Positions 1,352 through 15,967 of a stretch of DNA of 24,000 nucleotides are shown piece by piece. The notes beneath the pieces are model-generated. The model saw only the letters and a list, made by a program, of their open reading frames with translations, ran no database searches and was not told the origin of the DNA. This DNA is from Actinomyces israelii DSM 43320 (lineage in GTDB: Bacteria; Actinomycetota; Actinomycetes; Actinomycetales; Actinomycetaceae). The position numbers and the translations under genes were made by a program. How positions within the stretch are numbered: the stretch's first letter is position 1; each line of letters begins with the position of its first letter. The stretch is from positions 10,545 through 34,544 of the forward strand of contig NZ_JONS01000013.1 in the NCBI RefSeq assembly GCF_000711965.1, in the 5' to 3' direction.

Positions 1352-1393
1352 CGCCCCAGCCTACGGGGCAGGGCGGGGTCCGGGGGCGCCGTC

Positions 1394-4941: not shown

Positions 4942-4989
4942 ACCAGCATTGTGGCACCGGGTCCCGCCCGCGCCCGGCAGGCGCGTCCC

Positions 4990-5030
4990 AATATCTCGAA
5001 CTGATCTCAGCGCGGAACTGATGCGCGCGG
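4990..5030 (+). repeat. decayed copy H of the tandem-unit repeat
   Basis: The sequence AATATCTCGAACTGATCTCAGCGCGGAACTGATGCGCGCGG aligns to GAACCGATCTCGAGCCGG..AACCGATCTCGG. It lies immediately upstream of TetR, in inverted orientation relative to copy F. Confidence 0.4.
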
Positions 5031-5483
5031 GCCCGGCGGCCGCGCGACCATTCTTCGACGGCGGGGCTCGGCTTGTCCGCAGTTCGGGTGCCGCCCCGGG
5101 GACGGCCCGCAACTGGTGCGCACGCGCTCCTTGCGCGCCGGTACGCGGGGCGGCCGCGGCAGGCCGGCACGCATTCGCCCATCGCATAACACCGCGCCCC
5201 CTCCCGGTGCAGCAGCAGTCTATGAGGATTATCCATGGGACTTATGCGAATATGATTTCGAGGATGACCGTGAGAGCTCCGGGAAGGTTCCAGGTGGTTG
5301 ATTCTGAAGGGAGGCTCAATCCTCGCGGTCCTACGTTGGCTCGCGTGGCCGTACCTTAGGCGACCGGCGACCGCGGCCCTCAAGCACGACCGCGAGAGCT
5401 TCGGGTTGTCGCCAGTCCAGGTCGGCCTCCCGGGGGTCCCGGAGAGCCGATGGAGGCCCGACGGCGGACGCCCCGAGTCCCCT

Positions 5484-5568
5484 TGAACCGATCTCGAGCC
5501 GGAAGCGGACCGATCTCGGCGAACGGGCGGCGGCCGCCGCCGGTGGACGGGGAGGGTGCCGGCGCGGG
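5484..5568 (+). repeat. tandem-unit repeat, copy B, with downstream GGGGAGGGTGCCGGCG box
   Basis: TGAACCGATCTCGAGCCGGAAGCGGACCGATCTCGGCGAACGGG occupies 5484-5529. Its first 22 nt are identical to copy C. The box GGGGAGGGTGCCGGCGCGGG lies at 5549-5568. Confidence 0.8.
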
Positions 5569-6012
5569 CACCTACAGCGTCCCGAACGAGAGCACCTCCA
5601 CGGCCACCCACACGCAGAAGTCAGCCGGCTGCTGACCCTGAGGCGGAGGAGGGCATCATTCCTTTGCCGACGCTCAACCCGCCACAAGCAGCAACGCACC
5701 CAGCGTAAGCATGAGCGAAGCGGCTACATGCCGCTCACTACTCAACCTGGATATCACTGGGTCTCACCACGTACCCCAAAGAGCGCAGAAAAGGTCCCGG
5801 CCCAGCGCGCACCATAATGAGAGGCCTGGTCAGGGGAGGATTGATTGGGTTTGCAGCATCGGACTGGGGCGAAAGAGACCGATGCCGCCATTTATGTGTT
5901 CTGCATAATATCCGGGACCGAGTCTCACGAGTCGCACGTCCACCCACCCTGCGGAGCGCCTGGCCTCGACGCGGGCCCGGCCCGCCTGCCCCACTTCCCC
6001 GCCCAGAAGCCC

Positions 6013-6052
6013 GGCCGGGGGCGGCAGGTGAACGCGCCTGCCGCCCCCGGCC
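6013..6052 (-). terminator. 16-bp perfect GC hairpin downstream of clpB
   Basis: GGCCGGGGGCGGCAGG (6013-6028), loop TGAACGCG, CCTGCCGCCCCCGGCC (6037-6052). It lies 64 nt past the clpB stop. There is no U tract, which is common in high-GC actinobacteria. Confidence 0.5.
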
Positions 6053-6115
6053 CGCCAGCCGTCGGTGCACGCCGTCCGGCTCAGGCCGGCCTCAGAGCCC
6101 GCCGCCCCGCCAGGC

Positions 6116-11541: not shown

Positions 11542-13875
11542 ATGACCGACCCGACCGACCCGACCGACGCAGCCCCCGCCCAGCCCGGCCTGCCGCCCGT
11601 GCCCGCCTGGCTCGACGACATCGAGGGCGACCGGGCCCTCGCCTGGGTCGCCGAGCACAACGCCGCGACCCGCGCCGTCGTCGAGGGAGCCGAGCGCTTC
11701 GAGGCCATCCGGGCCGAGACCGAGGCGATCCTCGACTCGCCCGACCGCATCCCCGCCGTCGGCCAGGCGAACGGCCTGCTCTACAACTTCTGGACCGACG
11801 CCGACCACCCGCGCGGCCTGTGGCGCCGCACCACCTGGGAGTCCTACCGCGCGGGCGCCCCCGGTCGGGCCGACAACGGCACCGCTGCGTCAGGCGCGGC
11901 CTCCGCCGAGACCGGCACCCGGTGGGAGGTGCTGCTCGATCTCGACGCGCTCGGCGAGACCGAGGGCGTCGCCTGGGTGTGGCACGGCGCCCAGGTCCTG
12001 CGCACCGGGCCCCTGGCCGGTCGGCGCGCCCTCGTGACCCTCTCCGACGGCGGTGCGGACGCCGATGTCACCCGCGAGCTGGACCTCGACACCGGGCGCT
12101 TCATCCCGCCCGCCGAGGGCGGCTTTCACCGCGGGGCCTCCAAGGGGTCGCTGTCGTGGGCCGACGACGAGGGCGGCTCGGTGCTGGCCCTGACCGACCT
12201 CGGCGAGGGCTCCTTGTCCCCCTCCGGGTACCCGCGCCAGGTCAGGCGGCTGCTGCGCGGCCAGCAGCCGGCCGAGGGCGAGGTCCTGCTGACCGCCGCA
12301 GCCGACGACGACGGCGCCTGGGCCCACCGCGACCGCTGGGGCCGCACCTGGCTGCTCACACGCCCCGACTTCTACACCGAGGAGCTGTGGCTGCTTCCCG
12401 ACGGCGCCCCCGCCCTCCCGGCGTCGTCGGGACCGGGCGCCCTGGCGGAGGCCTCCGCGACCGTGGCCCCGGGAGCCGTGCACATCGACGTGCCCGCCTC
12501 CGCGGAGGCCTCCGCCGTGTGGGACTGGCTCCTGGTCAGCCTGCGCGAGGACTGGGAGACCGGCGGCGCCGTCCACCGGGCGGGCTCGCTGCTGGCCGCG
12601 CCCCTGGAGGACTTCCTGGCCGGCGGGCGCGACTTCGAGACCCTGTTCGCCCCGACGCCGTCGGCCTGTCTGATCGGCTTCACCGCAACCGCCCGCCACC
12701 TGGCCCTCACCCTGCTCGACGACTGTGCGGCCGCCCTGGAGGTGCTCACGCCCCCGCGCGCCACCACCGGCGGGTGGGCGCGCCGCCCCCTGGACCTGGG
12801 CGCGCTGGCCGGGAGGCCCGATGCCGGCGCCCGCGCCGATGCCGAAGCCGACGCTCCTGCGCGGCCCGACGCGCAGCCCGACCCCACTGCGCTGCGCCCG
12901 GGCCGGCCCCTGATCGAGGTCAGCGCCACCGCCGTCGACGGGCGGGAGGGCGACCGGCTGTGGCTGACGACGTCGTCCTTCACCCGGCCGACCACCCTCA
13001 TGGCGGGCGAGCTCGACGACGACGGCGCCCTGACCGGCGTCGAGGTGCTGCGCGCCGCGCCGGAGCGCTTCGATGCGACCGGCGTCGAGGTGAGCCAGCA
13101 CGTGGCGGTCAGTGCGGACGGCACGCGCGTACCCTACTTCCAGATCGGGCGGCCGGTCGCCGACGCCGAGGGGCGCGCCGCGGGCGGGCCGACGATCCTG
13201 TACGGCTACGGCGGCTTCGAGGTGCCACTGGGGATCGGGTACCTTCCGGTGACCGGCAAGGCGTGGCTGGAGCGGGGCGGCACCTATGTCATTGCCAACA
13301 TCCGCGGGGGCGGGGAGTACGGGCCGGCCTGGCACCGCGCCGGGCTCAAGGAGCACCGGCACCGCGTCTACGAGGACTTCGCGGCGGTCGCCCGGGCGCT
13401 GAGCGAGCGGGGCGTCGCCGCGCCGGGGCGGCTGGCCGTGCACGGGGGCTCCAACGGCGGCCTGCTCGTGGGCAATATGCTCACTCAGTACCCCGACCTG
13501 GTCGGGGCGGTGCTGTGCGAGGTGCCGCTGCTGGACATGCGCCGCTATACCCACCTGCTGGCCGGCGCCTCCTGGCGGGCCGAGTACGGGGACCCGGACG
13601 ACCCGGCCCAGTGGGAGTTCATCCGGACCTTCTCCCCCTTCCACCTGCTGGAGGCCGGGCACGACTACCCGCCGGTGCTGCTGGTGACCTCGACCCGGGA
13701 CGACCGGGTCCACCCGGCGCACGCGCGCACCATGGCCCACCGGCTGGAGAGCCTGGGGCAGGCGGTGACGTACTTCGAGAACTCCGAGGGCGGGCACGGC
13801 CGGGCCTCGACCAATGCGCAGCGGGCCTTCATGAGCGCCCTGACCTACGACTTCGCCTGGCGGACCCTGCGCTAG
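11542..13875 (+). CDS. prolyl oligopeptidase family (S9) serine peptidase
   Basis: The C-terminal alpha/beta-hydrolase domain has the nucleophile 'GGSNGGLLVG', 'TSTRDDRVHPAHA' (Asp) and 'EGGHG' (His). The N-terminal propeller begins 'WLDDIEGDRALAWVAEHN'. I chose the ATG at 11542 (MTDPTDPTD...); the upstream 47 codons of the track ORF cross two hairpins. Confidence 0.85.
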   Translation: MTDPTDPTDAAPAQPGLPPVPAWLDDIEGDRALAWVAEHNAATRAVVEGAERFEAIRAETEAILDSPDRIPAVGQANGLLYNFWTDADHPRGLWRRTTWESYRAGAPGRADNGTAASGAASAETGTRWEVLLDLDALGETEGVAWVWHGAQVLRTGPLAGRRALVTLSDGGADADVTRELDLDTGRFIPPAEGGFHRGASKGSLSWADDEGGSVLALTDLGEGSLSPSGYPRQVRRLLRGQQPAEGEVLLTAAADDDGAWAHRDRWGRTWLLTRPDFYTEELWLLPDGAPALPASSGPGALAEASATVAPGAVHIDVPASAEASAVWDWLLVSLREDWETGGAVHRAGSLLAAPLEDFLAGGRDFETLFAPTPSACLIGFTATARHLALTLLDDCAAALEVLTPPRATTGGWARRPLDLGALAGRPDAGARADAEADAPARPDAQPDPTALRPGRPLIEVSATAVDGREGDRLWLTTSSFTRPTTLMAGELDDDGALTGVEVLRAAPERFDATGVEVSQHVAVSADGTRVPYFQIGRPVADAEGRAAGGPTILYGYGGFEVPLGIGYLPVTGKAWLERGGTYVIANIRGGGEYGPAWHRAGLKEHRHRVYEDFAAVARALSERGVAAPGRLAVHGGSNGGLLVGNMLTQYPDLVGAVLCEVPLLDMRRYTHLLAGASWRAEYGDPDDPAQWEFIRTFSPFHLLEAGHDYPPVLLVTSTRDDRVHPAHARTMAHRLESLGQAVTYFENSEGGHGRASTNAQRAFMSALTYDFAWRTLR

Positions 13876-13913
13876 CCCGCCGAGATCGGTCCGCTGCACC
13901 GAGCCACAGCGAG
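13876..13913 (-). repeat. tandem-unit repeat, copy E (first unit decayed); fills the entire peptidase-Fic convergent spacer
   Basis: The reverse complement is CTCGCTGTGGCTCGGTGC-AGCGGACCGATCTCGGCGGGC. It begins directly after the Fic TAG (13916-13914). Confidence 0.55.
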
Positions 13914-14552
13914 CTACTCGTCAAGCACCTCGACGAACGGAGCGAAGCGGGCGTAGTAGTCGTCCTGCAGCGAGCGGAGCGTCTCGCGCAGGAACCCGGG
14001 CTGGTGCTCGTACTCGTTGAGACCCCGGTAGTAGAAGAGCTTCGTGGCGTCGAGGACGATGAAGGGCATGAGGCCATTGCGCAGGCACTGCTGGAACATC
14101 AGCATCCGGCCGACCCGGCCGTTACCGTCCTGAAAAGGGTGGATGCTCTCGAAGCGGTGGTGGAAGTCCGCGACGTCGTCGAGCGTCATGGACCCCGGCG
14201 TGCGCGCCAGAAGATCCTCGATCGCCGGCCCGACGCGCCCAGAGGCGACCGTCTCCCGCCCGCCGACGACGTTGGGCACGCGCTTCCAGCCGCCGACGGC
14301 AAAGGACGGCCTGCGGGCGTCGGCCGTCCCGCGCTTGAGGATCCGGTGGTAGTCCTTCATCACCGCTGCCGTGATCGGCTCGTCGAACCGGTCGAGCACG
14401 GCGTCGAACAGCTCAAAGCCGTTGACGGTCTCCACAATGTCGTCAACGGGGAGGGCATCGCCGGCAATGGTGCGGGTCTCGTAGATGTAGCGGGTCTGCT
14501 CCTCATCGAGGCGGCTGCCCTCGATCCGGTTGGAGTTGTAGGCCATGAGCAC
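13914..14552 (-). CDS. Fic/DOC family protein (class II, AMPylase-type); the 5' end appears frameshifted, and the intact gene would start at 14656
   Basis: Fic active-site motif 'HPFQDGNGRVGR' (HxFx[DE]GNGRxxR). N-terminal inhibitory-helix motif 'SNRIEG' ([ST]xxxE[GN]). A separate 23-codon ORF head (ATG 14656, SD GGAGG, about 96% GC3) reads into a different frame near 14587-14592. Confidence 0.8.
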   Translation of the reverse strand: MLMAYNSNRIEGSRLDEEQTRYIYETRTIAGDALPVDDIVETVNGFELFDAVLDRFDEPITAAVMKDYHRILKRGTADARRPSFAVGGWKRVPNVVGGRETVASGRVGPAIEDLLARTPGSMTLDDVADFHHRFESIHPFQDGNGRVGRMLMFQQCLRNGLMPFIVLDATKLFYYRGLNEYEHQPGFLRETLRSLQDDYYARFAPFVEVLDE

Positions 14553-14700
14553 CTGGTTGAGGTGGTAGAGGCCGCCTTCATCCGGGTGCGGCGCTGCTCG
14601 CGCAGGGTGCGCGCGAAGCGCGCGGGGTCAATGGCGTACTCGCCCTGCTCGGGCATGCCGCACCCCCTCCCCGATCCGCAGGGCTTCCATGCTACGAGTC

Positions 14701-14757
14701 ACCCGCACCGAGATCGGTTCACTTCCGGCTCGAGATCGGTTCACTTCCACAACTTCC
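14701..14757 (-). repeat. tandem-unit repeat, copy C (two full units plus extra GGAAGT spacers)
   Basis: The reverse complement is GGAAGTTGTGGAAG-TGAACCGATCTCGAGCCGGAAG-TGAACCGATCTCGGTGCGGGT. A further decayed unit reaches back to the GNAT stop (14779-14777). The box GGGGAGGGGGTGCGGC (14672-14657) ends at the Fic ATG. Confidence 0.8.
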
Positions 14758-14776
14758 ACATCGAGACGCCGTCGCC

Positions 14777-15256
14777 TCAGCACGCTCGAAGGTCGGCGCG
14801 CATGGCGGGGAACTTGTTGAGCGTGAAGCCGGTCTGCTCGTACATGCCCTGTCCCGCCTCGGTGGCCATGAGCTCGGCCCGGCCGATGCCGGTCGATGCG
14901 GCCCACCGCATCACCGCCTCGAAGGCCCGCCGGCCGTGCCCGCGACCGCGATGGGCCGGAAGAGTGCACACGTTGCTGACCAGCACGTCGCGGCCGTCGG
15001 GGACCTCGGGCGAGGGCGCGGCGTCCCGGACCGCCCCCATCGCGCAGGCCACGACCTCCCGATCCGCCTGCACGACGAAGATCCCGTATATCGGGTCCCT
15101 GATCCTCTCGAGGAACCAGCGACGCGCGTTGCTCCGCCACCGGCCATCCGTCATCGCCGTCCCCGTCATGCGGAACATCTCCTCGCGCAGCGCCACCAGA
15201 GCACTGACGTCGGGAACGGTCGCCCGTCTCACGACAATGGCATCATCCACGGTCAC
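14777..15256 (-). CDS. GNAT family N-acetyltransferase
   Basis: Acetyl-CoA binding motif 'VCTLPAHRGRGHGRRAFEAV' (Q/RxxGxG/A type) with typical GNAT length. The start is uncertain: GTG at 15256 (VTVDDAIVVRRATVPDV), 15250 or 15295. The rest of the 405-aa track ORF is antisense to the DUF2992 gene and looks non-coding. Confidence 0.75.
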   Translation of the reverse strand: MTVDDAIVVRRATVPDVSALVALREEMFRMTGTAMTDGRWRSNARRWFLERIRDPIYGIFVVQADREVVACAMGAVRDAAPSPEVPDGRDVLVSNVCTLPAHRGRGHGRRAFEAVMRWAASTGIGRAELMATEAGQGMYEQTGFTLNKFPAMRADLRAC

Positions 15257-15340
15257 GAAACTACCGTGGGCCCAAGCATGAGCAAAGGCCCTCACCCGGG
15301 CCGAGTCGAGGCATGCGCCACGGCGCTCCGTCGGCAGCGG

Positions 15341-15346
15341 TAGAAT
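15341..15346 (+). promoter_or_regulatory. -10 hexamer TAGAAT, candidate promoter of the DUF2992 gene
   Basis: It is the best -10 match in the 225-nt divergent GNAT/DUF2992 spacer. There is no good -35. It would give a ~130-nt leader. Confidence 0.4.
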
Positions 15347-15481
15347 CGCTCCATCAGATCCTGGTGCGCGAATCGCACTGCCCGGTAGGAAGTCCGGGCG
15401 GCACCCCGCCCGTGCCCGTCGCCTCGCCCCGTCGAGGAATCCGGCGTCACCAGGTCCGCTTCGGCGTACCTGGAGACAACA

Positions 15482-15907
15482 ATGGCGACGACTTTCACCA
15501 TCTTCTTCGACGGCCACCGGTGGGTGGGTGTTCTTGAGCAGCGCGACGGCGGCCAGATCCGAGCCGCTCGGGTCGTCTTCGGCCGAGAACCGAGCGGCGC
15601 GGAGATCGAGGACTGGCTCCGCCGTCACGGCAACGACCTCATTGCCCGCGCGTCCGCTGCGCAGCCCATCGACGACGGCGGCCGCCCGGCAATGCGGGCG
15701 CGCAGTCCGAAGCGCGCCCAGCGCGAGGCCGCCCGGCAGGCGCGCCAGCCGCACGGCGCCACCGCCTCCCAGCAGGCCCTCGCCGCAGACCGGGAGGCAC
15801 GAGCCGCAGCCCGCGCACAGGACGAGGCCGCCCGACGTCGTCGGGACCGCGAGGAGGCGTGGGCGAGGCGACGCGCACGCGCCCGAGCGCGCCACCGGGG
15901 CCGGTGA
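15482..15907 (+). CDS. YjdF-family protein (DUF2992)
   Basis: The N-terminus 'FTIFFDGHRWVGVLEQRDGGQIRAARVVFGREPSGAEIEDWL', the central 'SPKRAQREAARQ' and the basic tail ending 'RHRGR' match the DUF2992 pattern as I remember it. SD GGAGA lies 5 nt before the ATG. Confidence 0.75.
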   Translation: MATTFTIFFDGHRWVGVLEQRDGGQIRAARVVFGREPSGAEIEDWLRRHGNDLIARASAAQPIDDGGRPAMRARSPKRAQREAARQARQPHGATASQQALAADREARAAARAQDEAARRRRDREEAWARRRARARARHRGR

Positions 15908-15967
15908 ACCGATCTCGACGCGGAGCTGGACCGATCTCGGCGAAGAGGGGCGAGGGTGCCGGCGGGG
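15905..15967 (+). repeat. tandem-unit repeat, copy D, with downstream GAGGGTGCCGGCGGGG box
   Basis: TGAACCGATCTCGACGCGGAGCTGGACCGATCTCGGCGAAGAGGGG is followed by CGAGGGTGCCGGCGGGG. The first TGA (15905-15907) is the DUF2992 stop codon. Confidence 0.8.

Follow-up and report, generated by a model that had tools for sequence, protein, structure and literature searches.

Two genes of unrelated kinds, one for a GNAT acetyltransferase and one for a Fic-family protein, lie one behind the other on the minus strand of the window analysed here, a 24,000-nt stretch of the Actinomyces israelii DSM 43320 genome. The 120-nt gap that separates them (14657-14776) is largely taken up by short tandem repeats, and the question raised by the locus is whether the Fic gene owes its ribosome-binding site to the repeat. 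A preliminary description proposed that it does: one repeat copy was held to fill the whole gap, to offer a G-rich box as the Shine-Dalgarno (SD) sequence of Fic and possibly to join the two genes in transcription and translation, or else to have carried an outward-facing ribosome-binding site when it inserted. The minus-strand order on which this proposal was built is exactly as claimed (GNAT stop, decayed unit, GGAAGT spacers, two perfect units, G-rich box, ATG at 14656). The interpretation itself is partly supported.

The repeat unit consists of a 12-nt core, GRACCGATCTCG, which contains GATC, and a 10-nt semi-conserved spacer (RNNCGGAAST), giving a period of 22 bp. In the gap (array C; Table 1) the first unit on the GNAT side is decayed and agrees, by hand count, with 16 of the 22 positions of the consensus; a partial duplication and two perfect units follow. 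On hand comparison with the consensus unit, the segment beyond the last perfect core reads as a probable further unit in truncated form, and the nhmmer match to the array reaches only 14700. Recognisable repeat occupies 14695-14776, that is, 82 of the 120 nt. An array of the repeat takes up most of the gap, and the final 38 nt are not recognisably repeat. These 38 nt form the leader of the Fic gene. They comprise a -10-like TAGCAT (14694-14689) and a G-rich box (14672-14657) in which GGAGG (14670-14666) precedes the ATG (14656-14654) by exactly 9 nt. In copies B and D of the repeat a GCGAAGGGG-like G-rich motif stands immediately after the last unit; at Fic the G box is 36 nt off.

Table 1. 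Positions of the genes and repeat features discussed in the text. Plain numbers are window positions; those with a C prefix belong to the searched genome (G000).
Feature	Position	Strand	Remarks
Prolyl oligopeptidase (S9) gene	11542..13875	+	Pfam PF00326, 1.3e-41; convergent with Fic
Copy E	13876..13913	-	decayed repeat and one perfect core, 13892-13881; same orientation as array C
Fic gene	13914..14656	-	frameshifted by one base after about codon 27, near 14575
Fic leader	14657..14694	-	unique, 38 nt; TAGCAT, G-rich box, GGAGG
Putative truncated further unit	14695..14708	-	GTGCGG-type spacer, then GTGA and CTCG
Polymorphic 53-nt block	14709..14761	-	spacer of the decayed unit, 9-nt partial duplication, two perfect units
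Two perfect 22-nt units	cores 14742-14731 and 14720-14709	-	exact matches; GGAAGT closes each preceding spacer
Partial duplication, 9 nt	14751-14743	-	GTGGAAGT-type
Decayed first unit of array C	14752..14773	-	core-like GACGGCGTCTCG and spacer ATGTGGAAGT
GNAT acetyltransferase gene	14777..15250	-	stop TGA 14779-14777
Copy D	15906..15960	+	two units and canonical G-rich tail; inverted relative to the GNAT-Fic array
Back-to-back inverted pairs	C18:48462-48531, C2:155891-155960, C22:3164-3233, C25:21843-21912, C25:34487-34557, C7:126996-127066, C7:128912-128982		
Pair interiors with shared modules	C25:10917-12144, C5:103194-103623, C2:45335-45630, C19:49750-51867		
Arrays with tail before a predicted start	C20:48977-49010, C17:53899-53932, C25:34487-34520, C2:113470-113525		

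The two genes are identified by their domains. The GNAT product matches Pfam PF00583 (5.5e-12); its start is uncertain, with in-frame GTG candidates at 15256, 15250 and 15232. The Fic product matches PF02661 (7.9e-12), and its translation contains HPFQDGNGRVGR, which agrees with the HPFxxGNGR motif of the Fic/DOC family. The frameshift lies upstream of this domain: the frame that opens at ATG 14656 stops at 14360, and the domain is encoded in a different frame, open across 13914-14627. Intact Fic orthologues from two other Actinomyces species (G008 and G010; 246 aa) have the same N-terminus, as does an intact 247-aa homologue with 93% identity from a metagenome (contig L033). Because these proteins share their beginning, ATG 14656 is the authentic Fic start, and the GGAGG noted in the preliminary description is a good SD sequence in front of it. 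An exact look-up of a Fic fragment returned no record. In a second metagenomic contig, L034 (Logan SRR25639852; protein P0040), Fic keeps its frame at the site of the shift seen here and is itself frameshifted near codon 175; another species, G036, has at a different locus (C3:86162-86410) the remnant of a Fic gene that has lost an internal part. Taken together, the frameshifts and the remnant represent either repeated independent decay of Fic across strains or assembly errors.

The two metagenomic contigs separate the repeat from the SD sequence. The contig L033, from a close strain, carries the same GNAT gene and is missing 14709-14761, a 53-nt block that is present in L034. In L033 the decayed unit at 14752..14773 is kept and is joined straight to the truncated unit and the leader; a decayed unit occupies the same place in Actinomyces massiliensis. 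The leader is identical in L034, in which the perfect units are present, and nearly identical in L033, where it includes GGAGGAGG and where GGGGAGGAGG stands 9 nt before the ATG. Array C accordingly has no perfect unit in L033 against two here. The unit count of copy E is one here, two in L034 and two or more in L033. Since leader and SD sequence persist without the 53 nt that hold both perfect units, these units are a copy-number polymorphism and not the source of the ribosome-binding site, and the SD-bearing leader is constant. Moreover, a BLAST search of the genome with the 52 nt before the ATG (14657-14708) found no second copy. A site that is unique, and that is kept where the perfect units are gone, argues against the claim that the repeat supplied Fic with its ribosome-binding site.

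The explanation that we favour, with rather more confidence than doubt, is that the gap holds a single member of a lineage-restricted family of non-coding arrays that is spread over the intergenic gaps of the whole genome, and that Fic has its SD sequence in a leader of its own. The array would be a minisatellite prone to slippage or recombination, the number of its units shifting between species and between close strains. Its position would be old, because the same array follows GNAT in A. massiliensis. Intact Fic would be translated from ATG 14656 by means of an ordinary SD sequence in the constant 38-nt leader, outside the repeated units; the array would be a passenger in the spacer that probably permits read-through from GNAT and that could not couple translation.

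The abundance of the family is readily demonstrated. In the genome searched (4.03 Mb, 71.4% G+C) the core has 1,127 matches with up to two mismatches, compared to 119 for a reversed control, and in the window an 18-mer with up to three mismatches occurs 7 times, compared to an expectation of 0.04. Genome-wide there are 249 arrays of 2-9 head-to-tail units, with a spacing of exactly 22 bp in 351 of 366 cases. In 113 of 245 arrays RCGAA and a run of G come immediately after the last core; this canonical tail often holds GAGG or GGAGG. Arrays of either orientation are found between convergent, divergent and tandem genes; measured against gene positions from a crude, purpose-made gene caller, just five of the 249 lie inside genes. 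The G-rich tail faces the 3' end of a gene in 141 arrays and a 5' end in 86. Literature searches on the core sequence and on A. massiliensis repeats found no description of the family, which is apparently undescribed.

Neighboring arrays are arranged with a strong bias. Among pairs less than 1 kb apart, 20 of 26 are head-to-head with their tails outward, the other arrangements occurring 1, 2 and 3 times. In seven back-to-back inverted pairs the arrays are 3-4 nt apart, tails outward, and form palindromes of ~100 bp; no direct repeat of the kind left by target-site duplication was seen at the ends of these seven. Three of them nearly occupy the gap between convergent genes, and pairs so placed could be bidirectional terminator hairpins. 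For single arrays an RNA-structure or terminator role is unsupported: with their flanks (the gap and three other copies, both strands) they fold no better than dinucleotide shuffles, with z-scores of +0.9 to -1.35, and Rfam at gathering thresholds gave nothing in the whole window. The idea of a transposon with cargo is unsupported by the cargo, as the 33 proteins encoded between inverted pairs have no mutual similarity. Gene-free DNA inside head-to-head pairs shares further repeated modules of 100-230 bp with 70-85% identity (interiors listed in Table 1), and the 22-bp arrays may belong to larger mosaic intergenic elements.

High copy number of the repeat is restricted to three of the 58 Actinomyces species examined. 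The number of matches to a two-unit pattern, with up to three mismatches, is 352 here, 271 in G036 and 479 in A. massiliensis 4401292 (G042), compared to 0-2 in the other 55 species of the genus; the exact two-unit pattern is absent from the 12 other genera sampled in the order. The whole window is syntenic across the three species, with arrays A and D in all of them and arrays B and C in A. israelii and A. massiliensis. Copy D, for example, has 5 units in A. massiliensis and 3 in G036. Across the three species orthologous arrays have 2-5 units, and their cores are unchanged although the genes are ~84% identical; the GNAT protein at the syntenic position in A. massiliensis is likewise 84% identical. 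This identity of the cores means that the arrays may not be mere passengers, and it suggests either constraint or gene conversion. Of the 64 A. israelii arrays that are syntenic with an examined 800 kb of A. massiliensis, 38 are matched in position and 26 are without a counterpart. Between the TetR gene and clpB (window 4957-6112) the spacer measures 1155 nt here and 182 nt in A. massiliensis, a difference of ~970 nt; here it holds array B and a single unit at 4998.

The comparison with sister species also bears on how array and Fic gene came to be neighbors. The convergent S9 peptidase gene (86-93% nucleotide identity in A. massiliensis and G036) is conserved in all three species and anchors the locus, and copy E fills the gap between its stop and that of Fic. 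Between the S9 stop and the GNAT stop, A. massiliensis has a G-rich tail of 23 nt and then four units, the one nearest GNAT being decayed; Fic is absent, and homology is lost precisely where the last perfect core ends (14708/14709). At the syntenic site G036 lacks both Fic and GNAT. The Fic orthologues of G008 and G010 adjoin mnmA, without GNAT or the repeat. Insertion of the array with an outward-facing ribosome-binding site is unsupported: A. massiliensis has this array after its GNAT gene and no Fic next to it, so that the array there has no gene to serve. With three species compared, gain of Fic cannot be polarised against loss, and the A. massiliensis array does not show that the array came first. 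A divergent small gene beside GNAT (window 15277-15907; ORF 15482-15907) is absent from A. massiliensis, where homology breaks off at copy D, in its first core; in G036 the small gene is present and GNAT and Fic are lacking, so that three species present three gene contents at one locus.

These observations are open to a reading in which the arrays are recombination substrates, and in which Fic either inserted into one ancestral array or was deleted from A. massiliensis by recombination between units. The place of the array before Fic would then be a by-product of gene gain or loss and not of expression needs. Such a history is quite possible, though we would put it short of an even chance. 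It accounts for the presence of array C upstream of Fic and copy E downstream of it in direct orientation, for the tail and four units that lie between S9 stop and GNAT in A. massiliensis, and for a break in homology at the end of the last perfect core; it also suits the lack of Fic and GNAT from the site in G036 and the lack of the divergent small gene from A. massiliensis, with its break in copy D. Genome-wide, arrays are present in 41-51% of collinear junctions that differ in length by 300 nt or more, compared to 12-14% of those that differ by less than 100 nt, a statistic that is not normalised for gap length and is suggestive only. Against this reading, the tail beside S9 measures 6 nt here and 23 nt in A. 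massiliensis (hand count), the other Fic loci (G008, G010 and C3 of G036) are array-free, and three species do not distinguish gain from loss.

On the favored explanation the array is neutral to the expression of Fic, and transcription is expected to pass through it. A consensus scan of the gap found no terminator-like site and no sigma-70-type promoter; the sole terminator-like match of the scan is on the other strand, at 15514. With no such site and no unusually stable fold (z-score of the gap, +0.9), read-through transcription from GNAT into Fic is plausible. Translational coupling, by contrast, is excluded: the gap is 120 nt long, and neither the 22-nt period nor the 53-nt difference between alleles is a multiple of three. 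The proposed translational link between the two genes falls with it.

Fic may also possess a promoter of its own. The TAGCAT of the leader would serve as its -10 box, transcription beginning ~7 nt downstream and yielding a leader of ~25 nt; the array would then lie upstream of the promoter and an operon with GNAT would not be obligatory. We regard this as possible and on balance would not expect it. In the genome, 255 of 1,999 predicted genes (~13%) have TANNNT at -12/-13 of the start codon, a signature of leaderless transcripts; TAGGCT or TAGCCT are the commonest hexamers in that position and TAGCAT is within the top ten. A TAGGAT stands 20-21 nt before the ATG in the Fic orthologues of G008 and G010, and TAGCAT is retained in L033 and L034, although these close strains are too similar for retention to count. 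Weighed against this are the consensus scan, in which no sigma-70-type promoter was found, and the background counts, from which the chance of a TANNNT in 38 nt is roughly 10-20%. Elsewhere in the window, array A lies immediately upstream of the -10 box of a HAD-hydrolase gene that starts at 1351 (window 1352-1370).

A reading nearer to the original proposal is that the repeat element once ended 3' in a tail that has since decayed to the G-rich box and was co-opted as the SD sequence of Fic, so that the element does fill the whole gap. The canonical tail is G-rich and often includes a possible SD sequence, and by hand two more units with deletions can be made out between the last perfect core and the box. 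In addition, the orthologous array of A. massiliensis ends in GGGGAGGGAGGGGCG, which resembles the Fic G box at 13 of 15 positions; in 207 of 2,000 shuffles, however, a score as good was obtained (p ~0.1), and the similarity is not significant. Position provides a further guide. G boxes are enriched only within 0-40 nt of the last core (44, 14, 8 and 6 in successive 10-nt bins, compared to 1.7 expected), and the Fic box, at +36 from the last perfect core, is at the edge of this zone, where enrichment is ~3.5-fold (6 vs 1.7). An nhmmer profile of the terminal unit and tail has no match in the 52 nt before the ATG, the Fic-proximal box included, and the uniqueness of these 52 nt and the survival of the leader in L033 weigh against this origin. 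Comparison of the homologous loci points the same way: the Fic orthologues of the two repeat-free species have an SD sequence of their own, the purine-rich GAGGAAGGAG, at the same place. A local alignment of the 38-nt leader with the leaders of these orthologues is at chance level (p ~0.5). On this evidence descent of the box from a repeat tail is less likely than not.

Nor is the supply of ribosome-binding sites a general property of the family, given that start codons lie within 60 nt on the tail side in 22 of the 249 arrays and on the head side in 16, which amounts to no preference of gene starts for sitting behind tails, and that a tail precedes a start at just four loci. In these four arrays (Table 1) 17-21 nt separate the canonical tail from a predicted start, and GAGG is spaced as an SD sequence would be. 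They lend the idea of a co-opted tail some credit, and they are better candidates for a tail used as ribosome-binding site than the Fic locus. The spacing at Fic is within the range that the genome uses: across the genome the distance from GGAGG to the start peaks at 4-6 nt, and 9 nt is still in use.

Least probable, and in our judgment improbable, is that the arrays have a function as DNA sites, their identity across species preserved by a protein peculiar to the lineage that binds or recombines them, and that individual accessory genes are acquired and lost there. Fic would be a cassette between direct arrays, and GNAT and the small gene, which copy D and the GNAT-Fic array bracket, would lie between inverted ones; if true, it would amount to a dispersed, integron-like shuffling of accessory genes in the A. 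massiliensis clade.

Had a repeat donated a ribosome-binding site and welded two genes together as an operon, the locus would have exemplified exaptation. A plainer reading, the one with which we began, is favored by the evidence: a repeat of variable copy number in the spacer beside a decaying gene that probably has its own initiation signals. The family is of greater interest than the locus, being restricted in high copy number to three of the 58 species searched, identical in its cores across species, variable in unit number between strains and present at the edges of several differences in gene content. Its arrays offer a tractable system in which to ask what maintains such repeats.

How does the family compare with known repeats? 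The REP and BIME sequences of enterobacteria and pseudomonads are extragenic and lineage-specific, consist of palindromic units that form hairpins, and are associated with RAYT proteins. The arrays resemble them in their hundreds of extragenic copies and lineage-specific sequence, in their frequent position right after stop codons and within operons, and in the occurrence of inverted pairs. They differ in that the unit is a 22-bp direct tandem repeat and not a hairpin palindrome. Membership of the REP/RAYT class is ruled out by the failed palindrome test and by the transposase: the RAYT domain (Y1 transposase, PF01797) has no match in the A. israelii genome or in the other 57 genomes of the genus, while control genomes were matched.

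MITEs have terminal inverted repeats, are flanked by a target-site duplication and have a related autonomous transposase. Those of Neisseria, the Correia elements, are similar to the arrays in copy number and intergenic location, some copies forming inverted-repeat structures, and they are co-transcribed with their neighbors. The 26 of 64 syntenic arrays that lack an A. massiliensis counterpart could reflect mobility of a MITE-like kind. As differences, no target-site duplication was seen at the ends of the seven palindromes, the proteins between inverted pairs are unrelated to each other, and many loci keep their position across species, with only the number of units varying.

A precedent for a dispersed repeat that gives initiation signals to the gene downstream is provided by the REP2 repeats of Neisseria and the IR repeats of Borrelia, which carry promoter, ribosome-binding site and ATG (PMC3184786). 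In those systems many genes have a ribosome-binding site that belongs to the repeat itself; here the stretch with the SD sequence is unique and the family has no preference for the 5' ends of genes. The GGGAATC heptamer arrays of Xanthomonas and Nostoc are dispersed and intergenic, with a 7-nt unit that forms G-quadruplexes (PMC4692102). Like them, the present repeats are short, non-coding tandem arrays spread genome-wide, variable in unit number and often near stop codons; unlike them, they are built of 22-nt units in which a core that contains GATC is conserved, and their G-rich tail is a distinct part.

The MIRU elements, finally, have units of 40-100 bp, number ~40-50 per genome and contain ORFs that are in phase with the genes on either side and overlap their stop and start codons (Supply et al. 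1997, as summarised in PMC3184786). The arrays differ in having a 22-bp unit that is not a multiple of three, allelic variation of 53 nt and no conserved bridging frame, and in occupying ~250 loci in both orientations and in every type of intergenic gap. What they share with MIRU-VNTR loci is the arrangement of tandem units in the spacers of co-oriented actinobacterial genes and a number of units that varies between strains, and for these oral Actinomyces the arrays could serve in the same way as strain-typing (VNTR) markers.
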